Below, piece by piece: positions 920 through 17,665 of a DNA stretch of 64,000 nucleotides (the stretch's first letter is position 1; the number at the start of each line of letters is the position of its first letter). Source of the stretch: a virus. The position numbers and the translations under genes were made by a program. The stretch is taken from positions 128,001 through 192,000 of the IMG/VR virus record IMGVR_UViG_3300045988_082442. One strand, given 5' to 3'. The notes below the pieces were generated by a model that worked only from the letters and a program-made list of their open reading frames with translations, searched no databases and was not told the DNA's origin.

Positions 920-1144
920 TTTTTATAGCTATATGAAATAATACAGGTGTAAAAGTGTTCTAACTGTTTTAGAGTATAATCGTTTGTTTTACAGATATAT
1001 GAAATAACACAGGTGTAAAAGCTAGACTGTAAATCTGGTCTCATTTGAGTTACTTTGTAGTTATATGAAATAGCACAGATGTAAAATTGGATAATATGTT
1101 CTGAATTGTTTTATAGCTATACAGAAATGACATGGATGTAAGAG
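920..1144 (+). CRISPR. CRISPR array 1: four 36-37-nt repeats, three spacers (30, 30, 20 nt)
   Basis: Repeats at 920-955, 986-1021, 1052-1087 and 1108-1144, with a 66-nt period for the first three. Consensus is GTTTTATAGCTATATGAAATAACACAGGTGTAAAAG. Spacers are unique. The array is 57 nt upstream of the RuvC nuclease gene on the same strand. Confidence 0.8.
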
Positions 1145-1201: not shown

Positions 1202-3007
1202 ATGAAAAGAAAAGAGTTAAACGAAGGAGTTCACTGTGTAGAATATGCTTTAATGCACATACCAGATGAATATAAGGAATTGTTAGAAAGACAATATAAT
1301 TATATGGAAGATTTCAAGAATGGCTTTATTAGTTATATGTGGAGATATATTTCAAAGCAACGAAAGGAAAACGAAGAATTTGATAAAGCCATGGCTGAAG
1401 TTAGATACTTAAATACAAAGGAAGGAAGAATTATAAAGAAGGATGAACGCTCTAATAGACTAAGTAAAGCATATACAACAATAGGTAATTTTGTAAAAGA
1501 AACAAAGTTATTAGATTCTGGAAGTAGACGAAAAGAATACTACAGTACAGTAAAAAATGTTTATTATGCTTGGATACCAGATGATAGTAGGTCTTATGCA
1601 ATAGATGATGTTTTATCAGCATTTGAAGTATTCTTCTTTGATAGGGGTAAAGCAGTATTCCAAAAGAAATATGGTCATACAAAAATATTACAATTTAAAC
1701 CAGCATACAGTAGAATGAAGAGTACTGGTGAAATCAATACAATAGTACAAACACCTAGCAGAGTTGTATTTGAAAATGGAAATCCTTATTTTGAAATGTG
1801 GGATTTAAGAGATTTAAAAGATATACCAGAAGAAGAATGTCAAAAAGGTAAAAGACATAGTAAGATAAGATTTAGAATGTATTGTAATGATAAAGATGAG
1901 TTACAAAGTTATATAAAAACAAACCCATACATAGGTGGAACTAAGTTATTAAGATACTGGAAGAAGGGAAAATGGAGATATAGAGTTCAATTAAACTTTG
2001 AAGCAATATCACCAGCAGTAAAACAAATGAGCAACGAAGAGCATATAATGGGAATAGACTTAGGTACAGAAACAATAGCTTGGGTAAGAGATGATGGAGA
2101 ACAAGCAATATGGGAGTTATCACCAGATACACCAAGGGTAACAGAAGAAATAAAGGAAATAGATGTATATTTAGATAATTCAAGAAGGGCTATGAATCCA
2201 GAATTATTTAGGGAAGATGGTACTAGAATAAGTAATAGGGAAGCTAGGGAATTAGGATTAGAAGAAAAGCATTCAAAAAGATATATAAAAGCAGCAGCAA
2301 GAAGAAAAGAATGTTTTAGATATTTAGGAGAAAAAAGAAAACTAAATAACAGAATCCTAGCTAAAAAGTTATTTGAATTAGGTAATGAGTTTCATATAGA
2401 AAATAATAAGGTTTCATCTTGGATGTTAAAAAGATGTCACATGGCTCTTAAAACAGCAATGAAATATGCTTCTGGAGCAAGAGCAAGTGATTATGGGAAA
2501 GTTGTAGCAGATAGAGCCCCAGGAATGATAGATGCAAGATTATCTCAATTAGCAGGACAAAAAGGACTTTCATACCATAAAATTGAGAAGATAGAAGGTT
2601 TTAAATGCACAGAATATAATCATTTTACGGATAAGAATGATTTATTCCAATATCTAAATGACAGAATTGTAGTATTAGATGTTGACAGTGTAAATGATGT
2701 CTATAAAGAGTTTATTACTGATTTTGGTGATACAATTACTGATTTAAAAATAGACGGAAAAGACATAATACTACAAAGAGATTTATATGCAGCAGCAAAA
2801 TTAGTTTATTGCACACCATATAAAGAAACTATTGTGAATAGTAAAGGTAGAAAGGTAGAAGTAACAAGATATAAATTTGATAGAGAAGGGTTTAGCAAAT
2901 TCTTTGTTGAGAAATTTTATCCAAAACATTTAGAGTATATAATGAATCTAAGGGCTGAGTTAGCTAATGGTAAGAAGCTAAGTGGTACTGTATTTGGTAA
3001 TATTTAA
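1202..3007 (+). CDS. TnpB-like RuvC nuclease; candidate miniature type V (Cas12-like) CRISPR effector, 601 aa
   Basis: RuvC-I HIMGIDLGTE (about nt 2050), RuvC-II FHIENNKV (about nt 2399) and RuvC-III ILQRDLYAAAKL (about nt 2780) occur in TnpB/Cas12 order. About 280 aa precede RuvC-I. The zinc-ribbon cysteines are absent. RBS GGGGG. A CRISPR array is adjacent. Confidence 0.75.
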   Translation: MKRKELNEGVHCVEYALMHIPDEYKELLERQYNYMEDFKNGFISYMWRYISKQRKENEEFDKAMAEVRYLNTKEGRIIKKDERSNRLSKAYTTIGNFVKETKLLDSGSRRKEYYSTVKNVYYAWIPDDSRSYAIDDVLSAFEVFFFDRGKAVFQKKYGHTKILQFKPAYSRMKSTGEINTIVQTPSRVVFENGNPYFEMWDLRDLKDIPEEECQKGKRHSKIRFRMYCNDKDELQSYIKTNPYIGGTKLLRYWKKGKWRYRVQLNFEAISPAVKQMSNEEHIMGIDLGTETIAWVRDDGEQAIWELSPDTPRVTEEIKEIDVYLDNSRRAMNPELFREDGTRISNREARELGLEEKHSKRYIKAAARRKECFRYLGEKRKLNNRILAKKLFELGNEFHIENNKVSSWMLKRCHMALKTAMKYASGARASDYGKVVADRAPGMIDARLSQLAGQKGLSYHKIEKIEGFKCTEYNHFTDKNDLFQYLNDRIVVLDVDSVNDVYKEFITDFGDTITDLKIDGKDIILQRDLYAAAKLVYCTPYKETIVNSKGRKVEVTRYKFDREGFSKFFVEKFYPKHLEYIMNLRAELANGKKLSGTVFGNI

Positions 3008-3018
3008 TATAAATTATA

Positions 3019-3053
3019 GGGTAATTTTACAGCCCTTGCAGGAAACTGCAAAT
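3019..3053 (+). promoter_or_regulatory. conserved double-hairpin leader motif, copy B
   Basis: GGGTAATTTTACAGCCC TT GCAGGAAACTGC AAAT, 12 nt after the effector stop codon. Confidence 0.7.
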
Positions 3054-3062
3054 AAAATATCA

Positions 3063-4743: not shown

Positions 4744-5916
4744 GTGAATTTATTAGATAGTGTAGAAATTCAGAAATTAGAAGAGGATATAAAAAGATAT
4801 GCAAAAGCGTACTACGAGGGAAAAGCTCAAATCTCTGACTATGAGTTCGACAAACTTACAGATAGATTAAGAGATTTAAAACCAGACTCAACTGTATTAA
4901 GAACACCGGGATGGGGATATGAACAAACTGGTACAAAAGTAAAACATAAATATCAAATAGTTAAAAGTTTGGATAAGTGCAGAACATTTGATGAAATTCC
5001 AGAAAGATTTACAAATAAATCAGTAGCATTATCACCAAAACTAGATGGTCTTACAGGTGTATTCTATTATAAAAATGGTAGACTTATAAAAGCAATAACA
5101 AGAGGAAATGGAACAGAAGGCAAGGATATTACAGATAAAGCAAGACTAATAGTAGGTAATGAAATATTAGATAAGAACTTTACAGGTGGTGTTAGAGGTG
5201 AACTTGAAATTTCTAATACTAACTGGGAAATAATAAAGAGCAAATACCCAGAAGCTAAGAATGCAAGGAACTTATGTGCAGGTTGGATAAATTCAAAAGA
5301 CTATAATCCAGATGAAATAAAAATGATAGATTTTATTACTTATAAGGTAACTGGACAAGAAAGAGAAGAAGGAAAAGAAGATATATTTTATGATTTATCA
5401 AAAGTAGATAATATTGGTGAGATATGCTTTAATAGCAATCCAACTAAGTTTAATGTTATAGACTGGCTATCATATAACTTTAAAAATACAATACCAAAGG
5501 TACAAGCAACATTAACAAGAGATGGGTTTCAAGAATTTATGCAAAAGGTATTTACTGAATTTAAAACAAGTGATAGATATAATTTAGATTACGAACTAGA
5601 TGGTATTGTTATATCTGATATAGATGTAATATATCATAGAGCAGAAAATTCATATATTTATGATGAGTGTGCCTTTAAATTTGCAGCTGAATCTGCTGAG
5701 GCTAAGGTTACAGGAATTACTTGGAATATGACAAGAACACAAAGATTAGTTCCCATTGTTCAGTTTGAACCTGTATTTTTATCTGGTGCTGTTTTACAAA
5801 ATGCTACTGGACACAATGCAAAGTTTATATTAGATAATGAAATAAAAATTGGTTCTACTATTGAGATTTGCAGAAGTAATGAAGTAATTCCTTATATAAA
5901 GAAGGTAGTTGATTAA
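4744..5916 (+). CDS. ligA: NAD-dependent DNA ligase, N-terminal fragment (Ia, adenylation and OB domains)
   Basis: LigA Ia-like YYEGKAQISDYEFDKL, adenylation motif I SPKLDGLTG, and ELDGIVISD. The fragment ends where an OB domain would end. GTG start after GGAGG. Confidence 0.8.
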   Translation: MNLLDSVEIQKLEEDIKRYAKAYYEGKAQISDYEFDKLTDRLRDLKPDSTVLRTPGWGYEQTGTKVKHKYQIVKSLDKCRTFDEIPERFTNKSVALSPKLDGLTGVFYYKNGRLIKAITRGNGTEGKDITDKARLIVGNEILDKNFTGGVRGELEISNTNWEIIKSKYPEAKNARNLCAGWINSKDYNPDEIKMIDFITYKVTGQEREEGKEDIFYDLSKVDNIGEICFNSNPTKFNVIDWLSYNFKNTIPKVQATLTRDGFQEFMQKVFTEFKTSDRYNLDYELDGIVISDIDVIYHRAENSYIYDECAFKFAAESAEAKVTGITWNMTRTQRLVPIVQFEPVFLSGAVLQNATGHNAKFILDNEIKIGSTIEICRSNEVIPYIKKVVD

Positions 5917-5917
5917 T

Positions 5918-6679
5918 ATGTATGGTTATATCTATTTAGTGCATGACAGTCTAAATAATAGACATTATATAGGACAACACAAATGGACAAAGTATGAATT
6001 ATTAGACGAAGATTACACAAGAGGGTCTGAAAAAGCATTTAGAGATTCCCATGGATTTGATTTATTTAAGATAGACCCAAATTATTTAGGTTCAGGAAAA
6101 CATTTACAAAATGCAATTAAAAAATATGGTAAGAATTATTTTTATATACAAGATATACTTGATATTGCAGAAACAAAACAGGAGTTGAATAAAAAAGAGA
6201 AAGAATGTATTAGACATTATAAATATGTATTAGGTTATAATCTATACAATATTAGTGAGGGTGGTGATGGAGGATATACTGGTAAAGATATTAGTGGTAA
6301 GAATAACCCAATGTATGGAAAACATCATACAGAAGAAACTAAACAGAAATTAAGAGAAATTATGAAATCTAAGGATTTTGAATATTTTAAAACAGACCCT
6401 AGATTTAGACATTATGGCAAAGATAATGGAATGTATGGTAAAAATCATACTGAAGAATCAAAGGAGAGAAACAGGAAAAAACATTTAGGAAAGAAAGTAT
6501 CTGATGAAACAAGAAATAAAATGAGAAAATCACATAACCCAAATAATATGCCCCCAAATCTACAAGGATATAGAGGAATGAATAATGGAATAATATATAC
6601 AAAAATACCACCAGATAAAATAGATAAATACTTGAGTGATGGTTGGAAGTTTGGAAGAATTAAAAAGGAGGATAAATAA
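5918..6679 (+). CDS. GIY-YIG homing endonuclease with NUMOD3-like repeats
   Basis: YGYIYLV..HYIGQH (GIY..YIG), YNISEGG, and two GK(N/D)NxMYGKxHTEE repeats. It sits between the two ligase fragments with overlapping stop and start codons. Confidence 0.8.
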   Translation: MYGYIYLVHDSLNNRHYIGQHKWTKYELLDEDYTRGSEKAFRDSHGFDLFKIDPNYLGSGKHLQNAIKKYGKNYFYIQDILDIAETKQELNKKEKECIRHYKYVLGYNLYNISEGGDGGYTGKDISGKNNPMYGKHHTEETKQKLREIMKSKDFEYFKTDPRFRHYGKDNGMYGKNHTEESKERNRKKHLGKKVSDETRNKMRKSHNPNNMPPNLQGYRGMNNGIIYTKIPPDKIDKYLSDGWKFGRIKKEDK

Positions 6680-7566
6680 TGAATAGATGTGTAAATTTAG
6701 AAGAGAGTGAATATTTACCTACACAATGCCCAGCCTGTGGACATAATTTGGAGTGGGTTGGTGTTGATTTAAAATGTGTAAACACAGAATGTCCACATAT
6801 AGCAGAGAGTGATTTGGAACAGTGGTGTACTATTGTAGGAGAAACAGATGGGTTAGCATGGGTAACAATGAAGCAATATTTAGATAAATTCAATATACAT
6901 AATACAGATGATTTATATAAGAATATAAATACAATGATAGCTACATTACAAGGTGGTAATGCTTCTATAACAGATAAAAAGATTGTAGAGTTTCTAAATA
7001 AGTTATATAAAGATATGATACCAGTAGAAAAAGCATTGATGGGATTAAATATACCAAGATTAAGTGAACAGACAGCAAAATTATTAAATAAAGAGAAAGA
7101 GTTAGTACATGATTTAATGACAATAGGTTCTCAATATACTACTGTAAAGGATAGAGATATGATTTCTATTCCAGATACATTAAAGAATAAACTATTAGGA
7201 TTAGTTAAAGAAGCAACAACAGAATCTATATTAAGTAATTTAGGAAAGTTGAACACACTACATTATTTATATGAACAAGATACACCTAGAATTATATTCA
7301 ATGACAATACTGATGAAATTATAAAGGTTGCTGTTACTGGCTCATTAGAGAGTATGAAAAGAAGTGCTTTTGAGAAGTATATACAAAGTTATGGATATGA
7401 ATTATCTAGTAGTATTAAATCTTGTAAATATTTAATAACTAATAATCCGAACAGTGGTTCAAGCAAGAATAAAGATGCCCAAAAATATGGTGTTGAAATC
7501 ATAACTGAAAAAGAATTTTTAGATAAATTAGGTAAGGTAACTACTAAATCTAATACATTGTTTTAA
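6679..7566 (+). CDS. ligA: NAD-dependent DNA ligase, C-terminal fragment (Zn finger, HhH, BRCT)
   Basis: CPACGHNL..CVNTECPH zinc-finger motif. BRCT-like VAVTGSL...YLITNNPNSGSSKNKDAQKYGVEIITEKEF. The ATG overlaps the TAA of the endonuclease gene. Confidence 0.8.
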   Translation: MNRCVNLEESEYLPTQCPACGHNLEWVGVDLKCVNTECPHIAESDLEQWCTIVGETDGLAWVTMKQYLDKFNIHNTDDLYKNINTMIATLQGGNASITDKKIVEFLNKLYKDMIPVEKALMGLNIPRLSEQTAKLLNKEKELVHDLMTIGSQYTTVKDRDMISIPDTLKNKLLGLVKEATTESILSNLGKLNTLHYLYEQDTPRIIFNDNTDEIIKVAVTGSLESMKRSAFEKYIQSYGYELSSSIKSCKYLITNNPNSGSSKNKDAQKYGVEIITEKEFLDKLGKVTTKSNTLF

Positions 7567-11445: not shown

Positions 11446-12213
11446 ATGGGAAATTCAAGAATAAAAACATTAAGTGATAGAATGAAAGATTATGAGTTAG
11501 CATCTGATTACAGACTAACAAAGAAAACACCTGTAATAGTGAGAATAGATGGTAAATCATTTCACACCTTTACAAAAGGATTAGATAAACCTTTTGATAG
11601 TATATTATCAGAAGCAATGAACTATGTTTGTAGAAAATTAGTAGAAACAGTACAGGGCTGTAAGTTTGCATATACACAATCAGATGAGATAAGTTTATTA
11701 TTAACAGATTGGGATAAATCAACAACAGATTGTTATTTTGATTATAGGGTACAGAAAATGGTATCAGTATTAGCTTCAGCAGCAACTATGTATTTTAATC
11801 AGTATATAGTATCAAGAGTTTTATACTGGCAAAAAGGAGAGTCAGAATTATCAGAAAAGTTATTTGATAAATGGGCTGCAAAAGCTGGTTGTGCAATGTT
11901 TGATGCAAGAGCATATAATTTGCCAAAAGAAGAAGTATGTAATTACTTTATATGGAGACAAGAAGATGCAAGCAGAAATTCTATACAGTCATTAGGCAGA
12001 AGTAGATTTTCATTTAAGCAAATGTTAAATAAAAAGAACAATGAAGTACAAGATATGCTGTTTAATGAATATGGTATAAATTGGAATCGTATAGATACTA
12101 AATGGAAAAGAGGATTTGCAGTATGTAGAGATAAAGATGGTATAAAATCAGACTTTGAGATACCATTATTTAAAAAAGATAGAGCATTTATAGACAAATA
12201 TCTTATAGTATAA
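11446..12213 (+). CDS. Thg1-like protein (tRNA 3'-5' nucleotidyltransferase / tRNA-His guanylyltransferase family)
   Basis: VIVRIDGKSFHTFTKG and YTQSDEISLLL match the two conserved Thg1 catalytic segments. The size (255 aa) fits. Confidence 0.7.
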   Translation: MGNSRIKTLSDRMKDYELASDYRLTKKTPVIVRIDGKSFHTFTKGLDKPFDSILSEAMNYVCRKLVETVQGCKFAYTQSDEISLLLTDWDKSTTDCYFDYRVQKMVSVLASAATMYFNQYIVSRVLYWQKGESELSEKLFDKWAAKAGCAMFDARAYNLPKEEVCNYFIWRQEDASRNSIQSLGRSRFSFKQMLNKKNNEVQDMLFNEYGINWNRIDTKWKRGFAVCRDKDGIKSDFEIPLFKKDRAFIDKYLIV

Positions 12214-13269: not shown

Positions 13270-13278
13270 TAGATATAA

Positions 13279-13315
13279 GGGTAATTTTATAACCCTTGCA
13301 GGAAACTGCGAACTA
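13279..13315 (+). promoter_or_regulatory. conserved double-hairpin leader motif, copy C
   Basis: GGGTAATTTTATAACCC TT GCAGGAAACTGC GAACT, 10 nt after a stop codon. Confidence 0.7.
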
Positions 13316-13334
13316 TTTTTAATAGATATAAAAG
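13316..13334 (+). repeat. strongly truncated CRISPR-repeat remnant
   Basis: TTTTTAATAGATATAAAAG keeps the repeat's 5' end and its terminal AAAG. It is followed by the palindrome AAAAGCTTTT and a T-run. Confidence 0.3.
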
Positions 13335-17186: not shown

Positions 17187-17195
17187 TAAATATAA

Positions 17196-17235
17196 GGATA
17201 ATTTTACAATCCTTACAGGAAACTGTGAACTGTGT
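17196..17235 (+). promoter_or_regulatory. conserved double-hairpin leader motif, copy D
   Basis: GGATAATTTTACAATCC TT ACAGGAAACTGT GAACTGTGT, 8 nt upstream of array 2. Both stems carry compensatory changes relative to copies A-C. Confidence 0.75.
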
Positions 17236-17243
17236 AATTTAAT

Positions 17244-17665
17244 ATCCTATAGCTATATAAAATGACACAGATGTGAAAGTATTGCAACATTAAAATACCC
17301 TATTTTTGGGGTTTTATGGCTATATAAAATAACACAGATGTGAAAGAGGGATTTTGTTTTGTTAGCATTTATTTCTGTTTTATAGCTATATAAAATGACA
17401 CAGATGTGAAAGTCTGGAACAAATCTTGAAAAGTCCAGCTTTGTTTTATGGCTATATAAAATAACACAGGTGTGAAATAATTCAAAGTATTGTTCAAATA
17501 GTTTCTGTGTTTTATAGTTATATAAAATGACACAGATGTGAAAGGAATACTAAAATAAAGTAGCAATTGAGCTAGTTCTATAGCTATATAAAATGACACA
17601 GATATGAAAGTTAAGCTCATGAATGATAGCAACAATAGTTTTATAGATATATAAGAAGCAGAAAG
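17244..17665 (+). CRISPR. CRISPR array 2: seven repeats (last one degenerate), six spacers of 27-31 nt
   Basis: Repeats at 17244, 17311, 17377, 17443, 17509, 17575 and 17638, with a 66-67-nt period. Consensus is GTTTTATAGCTATATAAAATGACACAGATGTGAAAG (36 nt). All spacers are unique. Confidence 0.9.

Follow-up and report, generated by a model that had tools for sequence, protein, structure and literature searches.

The stretch of DNA analysed here, referred to as the window, is 64,000 nt long and lies within a 213,644-bp human-gut metagenome contig (ENA ERZ28663717, ZEEV15-1_SAMEA3664998 scaffold_17). Its source is a jumbo phage of 214 kb with a GC content of 29.3%. Nearly all open reading frames (ORFs) of the window are on the + strand, and their products (PHROG) include a portal protein, RNA ligases, a polynucleotide kinase, a tRNA-His guanylyltransferase, an NAD-dependent DNA ligase and many HNH/homing endonucleases. 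The tRNA genes, CRISPR arrays and effector gene considered below are arranged as follows:

73-864: cluster of five tRNA genes with tRNA-Tyr(GUA) last (ARAGORN)
779-864, + strand: the phage's own tRNA-Tyr(GUA) gene (ARAGORN; Rfam tRNA 58.6 bits; cloverleaf fold)
806-835, + strand: anticodon arm and whole variable arm of that gene (tRNA nt 27-48), matched by spacer 2 at 26/30
869-911, + strand: leader of array 1, a covarying hairpin (AAGGGC..GCCCTT) followed by CAGGAAACTGTGAACTGTGTA
920-1144, + strand: CRISPR array 1, with a 66-nt period (36-nt repeats, 30-nt spacers)
920-955, 986-1021, 1052-1087 and 1108-1144: repeats of array 1, the third degenerate, the fourth degenerate and 37 nt long
956-985, 1022-1051 and 1088-1107: spacers of array 1, the third cut down to 20 nt
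1022-1051, + strand: spacer 2, 30 nt, in tRNA sense, matching a foreign tRNA-Tyr at 29/30 and the phage's own at 26/30
1202-3007, + strand: compact type V (Cas12f/Cas12m-like) effector of 601 aa, with RuvC D/E/D motifs GIDLGTE, FHIENN and QRDLYAAAK
17194-17236, + strand: second leader element, the same element as the leader of array 1
17244-17654, + strand: CRISPR array 2, of the repeat family of array 1, with six full repeats, a truncated seventh and six spacers

The tRNA-Tyr gene that closes the cluster folds into a cloverleaf with the anticodon stem UCAGA/UCUGA. Two odd tRNA-like genes also lie beside array 1, at 273-346 and 357-446. One of them is a tRNA-Ile(AAU), and the other is a 90-nt tRNA that ARAGORN leaves without assignment (Thr|Asn, with a two-base anticodon call and a long extra arm). 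Comparable genes adjoin the arrays of related phages (L014 9253-9327; L025 382-456; L022 1144-1231 and 1280-1354), among them some with the ARAGORN call 'tRNA-???(aa)'. The window ORFs between 3330 and 62659 (e.g. 4744-7563 and 11446-12210) further contain a tRNA repair and maturation kit, consisting of at least two RNA ligases, a polynucleotide kinase, Thg1, a nucleotidyltransferase and a tRNA amidotransferase-like protein. Together with the many HNH/homing endonucleases, this kit suggests pressure from host anticodon nucleases.

A promoter-like leader element is common to both arrays of the window and is found with arrays and effector genes of related phages. The element spans about 45 nt and consists of a hairpin with the loop AATTTTACA, followed by G-CAGGAAACTG-[TC]GAA; its stems covary (AAGGGC/GCCCTT, AAGGAT/ATCCTT, AGGGT/ACCCT, CAGGC/GTCTG). 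Copies are located at 869-911, 3017-3059, 13277-13319 and 17194-17236 of the window, and in the relatives at L014 5002, 9353 and 9951, L018 9807, L020 836, L021 6314, L022 1519, L024 1003 and L025 480. The element precedes every mini-array, some effector genes and other genes, and looks like a phage-specific promoter or start signal. One spacer of array 2, TCTGGAACAAATCTTGAAAAGTCCAGCTTT (17413-17442), is identical at 27 of 30 positions to the first spacer of L022 (1592-1621), and the three differences fall on codon positions 3, 3 and 1 of one reading frame (SGTNLEKSS[F/L]). From this pattern the window phage and L022 would seem to aim at variants of one protein-coding protospacer; no target of the shared spacer was found in the IMG/VR scans or among the fetched loci.

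The effector gene starts about 150 nt downstream of spacer 2. The protein matches the PADLOC Cas12f profile (4e-7) and a PHROG TnpB-like ‘transposase' (3e-11); against NCBIfam TnpB it scores 17 bits, with the cut-off at 100. It has no match in Pfam and none by sequence in the PDB. By structure, its best Foldseek matches in the PDB are AsCas12f (1.2e-7) and Cas12m2 (1.6e-7), with a probability of 1.0 and TM of 0.25-0.36, obtained with an AlphaFold model of medium quality (pLDDT 65, C-terminal third poor). The modelled protein is thus predicted to be Cas12-like, with a single RuvC-like nuclease domain and a Cas12/TnpB fold. Only eight homologues were found in 5.8 billion proteins. RuvC D/E/D residues are kept in seven of these eight; the full triad is present in five of the six full-length proteins, and the third motif is missing from the two truncated ones. 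Wherever the surroundings of a homologue could be read, its neighbours are tRNA genes, a tmRNA gene or mini-arrays; the context, where it could be assessed, is that of a phage. The effector is a member of a very rare Cas12f/m-like lineage that lies outside the curated libraries. In one homologue (P0005, L023), the first RuvC aspartate is replaced (AINGQTET) and the glutamate is changed to aspartate (FVLDNN), and by its motifs this protein may be a nuclease-impaired variant.

In the related jumbo phages the number of separate mini-arrays reaches six, with 36-nt repeats and 30-nt spacers (L018 2473-12085, in a 195-kb phage; L021 4757-9028; L014 5030-12149; also L020 and L024). The mini-arrays are interspersed among tRNA and tmRNA genes of the same strand, some lie 27-50 nt from a tRNA gene, and some show compensatory repeat variants. 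In L025, whose effector is 55% identical, the leader element is kept and the array is gone (470-530), and what is left of a repeat, GATTTTATAGGAGG, is joined to the effector gene's ribosome-binding site.

In array 1, the repeat upstream of spacer 2 (R2) is intact, and its terminal stem is kept by paired changes; across the arrays this stem occurs as TTTTACA/TGTAAAA, TTTTATA/TGTGAAA and TTTTAGAC/GTCTAAAA, the changes being compensatory. The repeat downstream of spacer 2 is changed at eight of 36 positions, spacer 3 is shortened to 20 nt and an insertion has entered the last repeat: the array is decaying at its far end. Spacer 2 itself is exactly 30 nt long and in register with the 36+30 nt array. 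In a close strain (L001/L002, contigs from other samples, effector 99% identical), the slots of window spacers 2 and 3 are filled by two unrelated 30-nt spacers. The whole of array 1 is identical in another sample (L004), and two independent samples (L003/L004) agree in spacer 2. By these features spacer 2 is a genuine CRISPR spacer that is specific to the strain. It reads in the sense of the tRNA, on the strand of the leader, the genes and the array polarity, and can consequently pair only with the template strand of the DNA and not with tRNA-Tyr. No cas1, cas2 or cas4 gene was found among the 53 window ORFs (PADLOC, E<=1e-5); adaptation genes are commonly missing from phage CRISPR loci (PMC7162821).

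The sequence of spacer 2, CTAGACTGTAAATCTGGTCTCATTTGAGTT, closely resembles a segment of the phage's own tRNA-Tyr gene, TCAGACTGTAAATCTGACCTCATTTGAGTT (806-835), which lies about 160 nt upstream. The match of 26/30 given in the original prediction is confirmed, and the best matches to the spacer in 200 shuffles of the window (both strands) reached 18-22/30. Elsewhere in the window the spacer was not found at up to three mismatches. The four mismatches are at spacer positions 1, 2, 17 and 18. Positions 1 and 17 correspond to tRNA nucleotides 27 and 43, and together they change the own U-A pair into C-G. Position 2 corresponds to nucleotide 28, whose partner G42 is unchanged, so that C-G becomes U·G, and the variable region begins with position 18. 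The anticodon stem accordingly stays paired, as had been proposed. A further claim, that similarity to the tRNA runs on into the next repeat (TAGTT), is put down to chance: beyond the end of the spacer only four of seven bases match the tRNA, and the same TAGTT repeat variant recurs in array 2 (17509-17544), where no tRNA-like spacer adjoins it.

The paired differences had been taken to indicate a different but genuine tRNA-Tyr(GUA) gene as the source, and such genes are found. The 26-nt core of the spacer occurs at nine loci, each of which carries CCAGACTGTAAATCTGGTCTCATTTGAGTT and matches the spacer at 29/30, the sole difference being a T in the spacer for a C at position 2. An 86-nt tRNA-Tyr(GUA) surrounds the match at eight of these loci (ARAGORN), and the ninth is cut by a contig end. 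Both kinds of carrier originally suggested, host and rival phage, are represented. Three loci (L005, L006, L009) belong to one type of large phage, of up to 175 kb, with RNA ligase and DNA ligase genes. Five or six of the nine are low-GC Clostridia chromosomes from the rumen or the rabbit gut. Bacterial housekeeping neighbours are present at L007, L011 and L013 (cytidylate kinase (cmk), an acyltransferase, a Lon-like protease, an M16 peptidase, an acyl-CoA ligase and TetR), and L010 and L012 have a tRNA-Met/tRNA-Tyr pair in common. The four matches in GTDB are metagenome-assembled genomes (MAGs) of Clostridia, two from sheep rumen (PMC4158751), one from water-buffalo rumen and one from rabbit gut; other than in these four animal-gut genomes, the core is absent from the GTDB species genomes. 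The GC content of the bacterial loci is 26-29%, compared with 29.3% in the phage. Habitats differ: the readable bacterial near-exact alleles come from the rumen (sheep, water buffalo) or the rabbit gut, and the phage comes from the human gut, where none of 27 contigs had a tRNA at the syntenic site beside the conserved neighbouring gene.

A genome carrying the exact variant, for which a search had been proposed, did not come to light: the 30-mer (30/30) was found in none of IMG/VR, the JGI metagenomes and the GTDB species genomes. The one base that separates the spacer from the sampled alleles is nevertheless a natural one in tRNA-Tyr. At least 13 further phage tRNA-Tyr genes in IMG/VR have the stem CUAGA/UCUGG with U28·G42: of the 14 loci there that hold CTAGACTGTAAATCTGG, 13 have it within a tRNA-Tyr(GUA) gene, combined with other, unrelated variable arms. 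Since U28·G42 occurs naturally, the T at spacer position 2 may plausibly reflect a real allele missed by the sampling and not a mutation acquired later. Judged by these alignments, the source of the spacer would be a foreign tRNA-Tyr(GUA) allele of the form C[C/U]AGA-CUGUAAA-UCUGG-UCUCAUUUGAGUU. This source allele is found on the chromosomes of a narrow clade of low-GC Clostridia, and other large phages that infect such bacteria have it too.

The tRNA-Tyr gene of the phage itself shares about 90% identity with the bacterial gene that has the 29/30 match, and hence derives from the bacterial lineage. Its own-type allele (TCAGA/TCTGA-CC) was not found in IMG/VR. It is also present in the phage L022, whose effector is only 52% identical and in which spacer 2 is missing, and has been seen only in these two phages (window and L022), both with this effector family. 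Because L022 has the allele without the spacer, the divergence of the own gene predates spacer 2. The proposal that the own allele evolved to escape the spacer is rejected on the same grounds.

The nucleotides that flank the tRNA site bear on recognition by the effector. On the 5' side the foreign alleles have AAAACCG and the own gene has AAAACCA; the array repeat ends in TAAAAG. A T-rich PAM is usual among the relatives of Cas12f and TnpB. The flank AAAACCG is not T-rich, which counts against an active spacer as the preferred reading. By inference from these flanks, a PAM that spares the phage's own array would have to involve positions -2/-3 (CC). The own tRNA gene shares this CC, so that its sparing would rest on position -1 or on the four mismatches. 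It had been suggested that the own-gene mismatches at positions 1 and 2 fall in a PAM-proximal seed. The Cas12-like character of the effector is in keeping with this if the usual type V geometry applies; position 2 of the presumed seed, however, also mismatches all nine sampled foreign alleles, that is, the candidate targets themselves.

The other spacers gave no comparable match. GenBank phages searched with the locus and 42 pooled spacers (E<=1) returned only distant tRNA matches or nothing, and three further spacer scans of IMG/VR gave zero matches. When about 60 spacers were compared with all fetched loci, all against all, no protospacer appeared apart from the tRNA; against about 200 kb of related DNA the other spacers reached 20-24/30. 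Among the roughly 60 spacers of seven related phage loci, compared with 67 distinct tRNA sequences, only spacer 2 rose above the shuffle background, and tRNA-matching spacers as a general theme of these arrays were rejected.

With moderate confidence, spacer 2 is read as directed against a foreign tRNA-Tyr allele and as functional, or functional until recently, the favoured target being a rival phage. Set against this reading, besides the flank, are the lack of a 30/30 protospacer in the collections searched, the mismatch at position 2 to all nine sampled alleles, the failure of every other spacer to yield a protospacer, the difference in habitat, the decay of array 1, the absence of cas1, cas2 and cas4 among the window ORFs and the single tRNA match among about 60 spacers. 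In the proposed mechanism, the promoter-like leader would drive transcription of array 1, and the repeat-spacer RNA, with the ends of the repeat paired as a stem, would load the Cas12f/m-like protein. The loaded effector would then be directed to the DNA of any genome that carries the foreign allele and would presumably cleave it there. The likeliest target is a rival phage infecting the same cell; the bacterial chromosome would be hit too. The own tRNA-Tyr gene would be spared through its four differing positions, two of which are at the PAM-proximal end. As the own allele had already diverged, spacer 2 could be kept by the phage, and the divergence was not a response to it. Since the tRNA-Tyr genes of large phages that infect these bacteria are host-like, spacer 2 would cover rivals broadly. 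The locus appears to be a true instance of a phage CRISPR system directed at a gene of a rival or a host.

The same near-exact alleles admit a reading centred on the host, in which the chromosomal tRNA-Tyr gene is cut or silenced and the phage relies on its own guide-resistant tRNA-Tyr. This takeover with immune replacement, a part of the original prediction, is unlikely. [quoted passage not shown] At least four Clostridia species whose GC content is like that of the phage do have the 29/30 allele in a chromosomal setting, the own tRNA-Tyr is of the same bacterial lineage, and the own-type allele is confined to phages with this effector family. But no bacterial genome searched has an exact match, the sampled human-gut relatives have no tRNA at the syntenic site, and beyond the four animal-gut genomes the GTDB species genomes do not contain even the 26-nt core. 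Mature tRNA outlives the lytic cycle, and loss of the gene therefore creates no need for a replacement. The own allele is moreover older than the spacer, and the identical allele in other large phages fits competition between phages equally well. A host-type allele at 29/30 and the sigma-70 parallel thus speak for the earlier idea, and the age of the own allele and the longevity of tRNA speak against it. It is doubtful to the same degree that the phage guide cuts or silences the tRNA-Tyr of a Clostridial host, and of any co-infecting phage with a host-like allele, while the own guide-resistant copy is expressed upstream of the array; the data can be explained without the immune replacement.

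Spacer 2 might also be an old spacer from a foreign tRNA-Tyr whose target is now gone and which drifts in a decaying array, a reading considered rather unlikely. The changed downstream repeat, the 20-nt third spacer and the insertion in the last repeat would fit such a relic, as would a sole mismatch to all nine sampled alleles that is a C-to-T transition at position 2 and the lack of an exact target in IMG/VR, JGI metagenomes and GTDB. Against it, the upstream repeat, from which a type V guide takes its handle, is intact and its stem changes are compensated, the spacer is the same in both independent samples, and tRNA-Tyr genes naturally include the variant U28·G42. The databases are besides poor in human-gut phages of this type, to the point that even the carrier phage is missing from IMG/VR as searched. 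A recombination scar, raised already with the original prediction, would mean that part of the phage's neighbouring tRNA-Tyr gene entered the array as a copy, through illegitimate recombination or gene conversion, and diverged afterwards. The short distance of 160 nt to the tRNA gene and the weak extra similarity in the next repeat (TAGTT) point in this direction, but the foreign alleles, at 29/30, are closer to the segment than the own gene is, at 26/30, and three of the four differences from the own gene are exactly the foreign bases. The segment is also of exact spacer length and in register, TAGTT is a repeat variant shared with array 2, and ordinary spacers fill the slot in the sister strain. 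Such a scar is disfavoured by these features and must be judged very improbable. Least credible is a role at the level of RNA, with the spacer transcript acting as an antisense against tRNA-Tyr or serving, through an anticodon stem-loop, as a decoy for a host nuclease that attacks tRNA-Tyr. The spacer RNA can indeed fold into an anticodon-like hairpin, and the tRNA repair kit (RNA ligases, polynucleotide kinase, Thg1) suggests anticodon-nuclease pressure; antisense action is nonetheless ruled out by the strand sense, which allows no pairing with tRNA-Tyr, and the decoy is without support, one spacer in about 60 making no system.

An active spacer against a foreign allele can be placed among several known systems. 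Huge phages have CRISPR-Cas loci whose spacers are directed at rival phages or at genes of the host (Al-Shayeb et al. 2020, PMC7162821), and the present locus shares with them a large phage genome, a compact array, a small type V effector and the absence of adaptation genes nearby. As in their sigma-70 case, the spacer matches a gene of the translation apparatus of which the phage has its own version. In contrast to those loci, the gene matched here is a tRNA gene and not a protein gene, the own copy is directly upstream of the array, and the best match is 29/30 in other habitats, whereas the published cases have at most one mismatch within the same sample set (PMC7162821). Viral CRISPR mini-arrays have been linked to competition between related viruses (reviewed in PMC11656645). 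The likeness extends to very short arrays, spacers that differ between close strains and a target homologous to the carrier's own gene, with mismatches that would protect the carrier; yet viral mini-arrays borrow Cas proteins and repeats from the host, while this phage encodes an effector beside the array.

Homing guides of the V-K (Cas12k) CAST elements (Hsieh & Peters 2021, bioRxiv 10.1101/2021.02.06.429022) resemble spacer 2 in being type V guides to a tRNA gene with atypical or degenerate repeats adjoining. However, Cas12k is nuclease-dead and the RuvC triad is intact here, and the spacer is inside an array with a full upstream repeat, in a 214-kb phage and not a transposon. No Tn7-type transposition genes were found among the 53 window ORFs (listed PHROG and PADLOC family matches), and a CAST homing guide is rejected, given the intact RuvC, the lack of Tn7 genes and the portal, ligase and HNH genes typical of a phage. 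A preprint on Cas12r of Thermus phages was also set aside as a parallel, the tRNA link being made there through the attachment sites of integrative elements and not through tRNA-matching spacers. With Cas12f (V-F) and Cas12m (V-M) the effector shares its size of 601 aa, the RuvC D/E/D motifs, Foldseek values of about 1e-7 and the PADLOC Cas12f match; its sequence similarity is far under the family thresholds, and it differs from both in having no relative in the PDB by sequence.

Competition among phages and takeover of the host are the roles generally ascribed to CRISPR systems carried by phages, and few of their spacers have identifiable targets. Here the class of target is clear, namely a tRNA-Tyr allele common to a narrow Clostridia clade and large phages, and the carrier's own paralogue shows how a phage can keep a guide against a gene that it also needs. 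The effector family, being small (601 aa), very rare and uncurated, is of possible interest to developers of genome editing. If interference with the foreign allele and immunity of the own allele hold true, the locus would represent a compact, natural case of allele-specific discrimination between self and non-self by a miniature Cas12, and would also point to the host clade of the phage.
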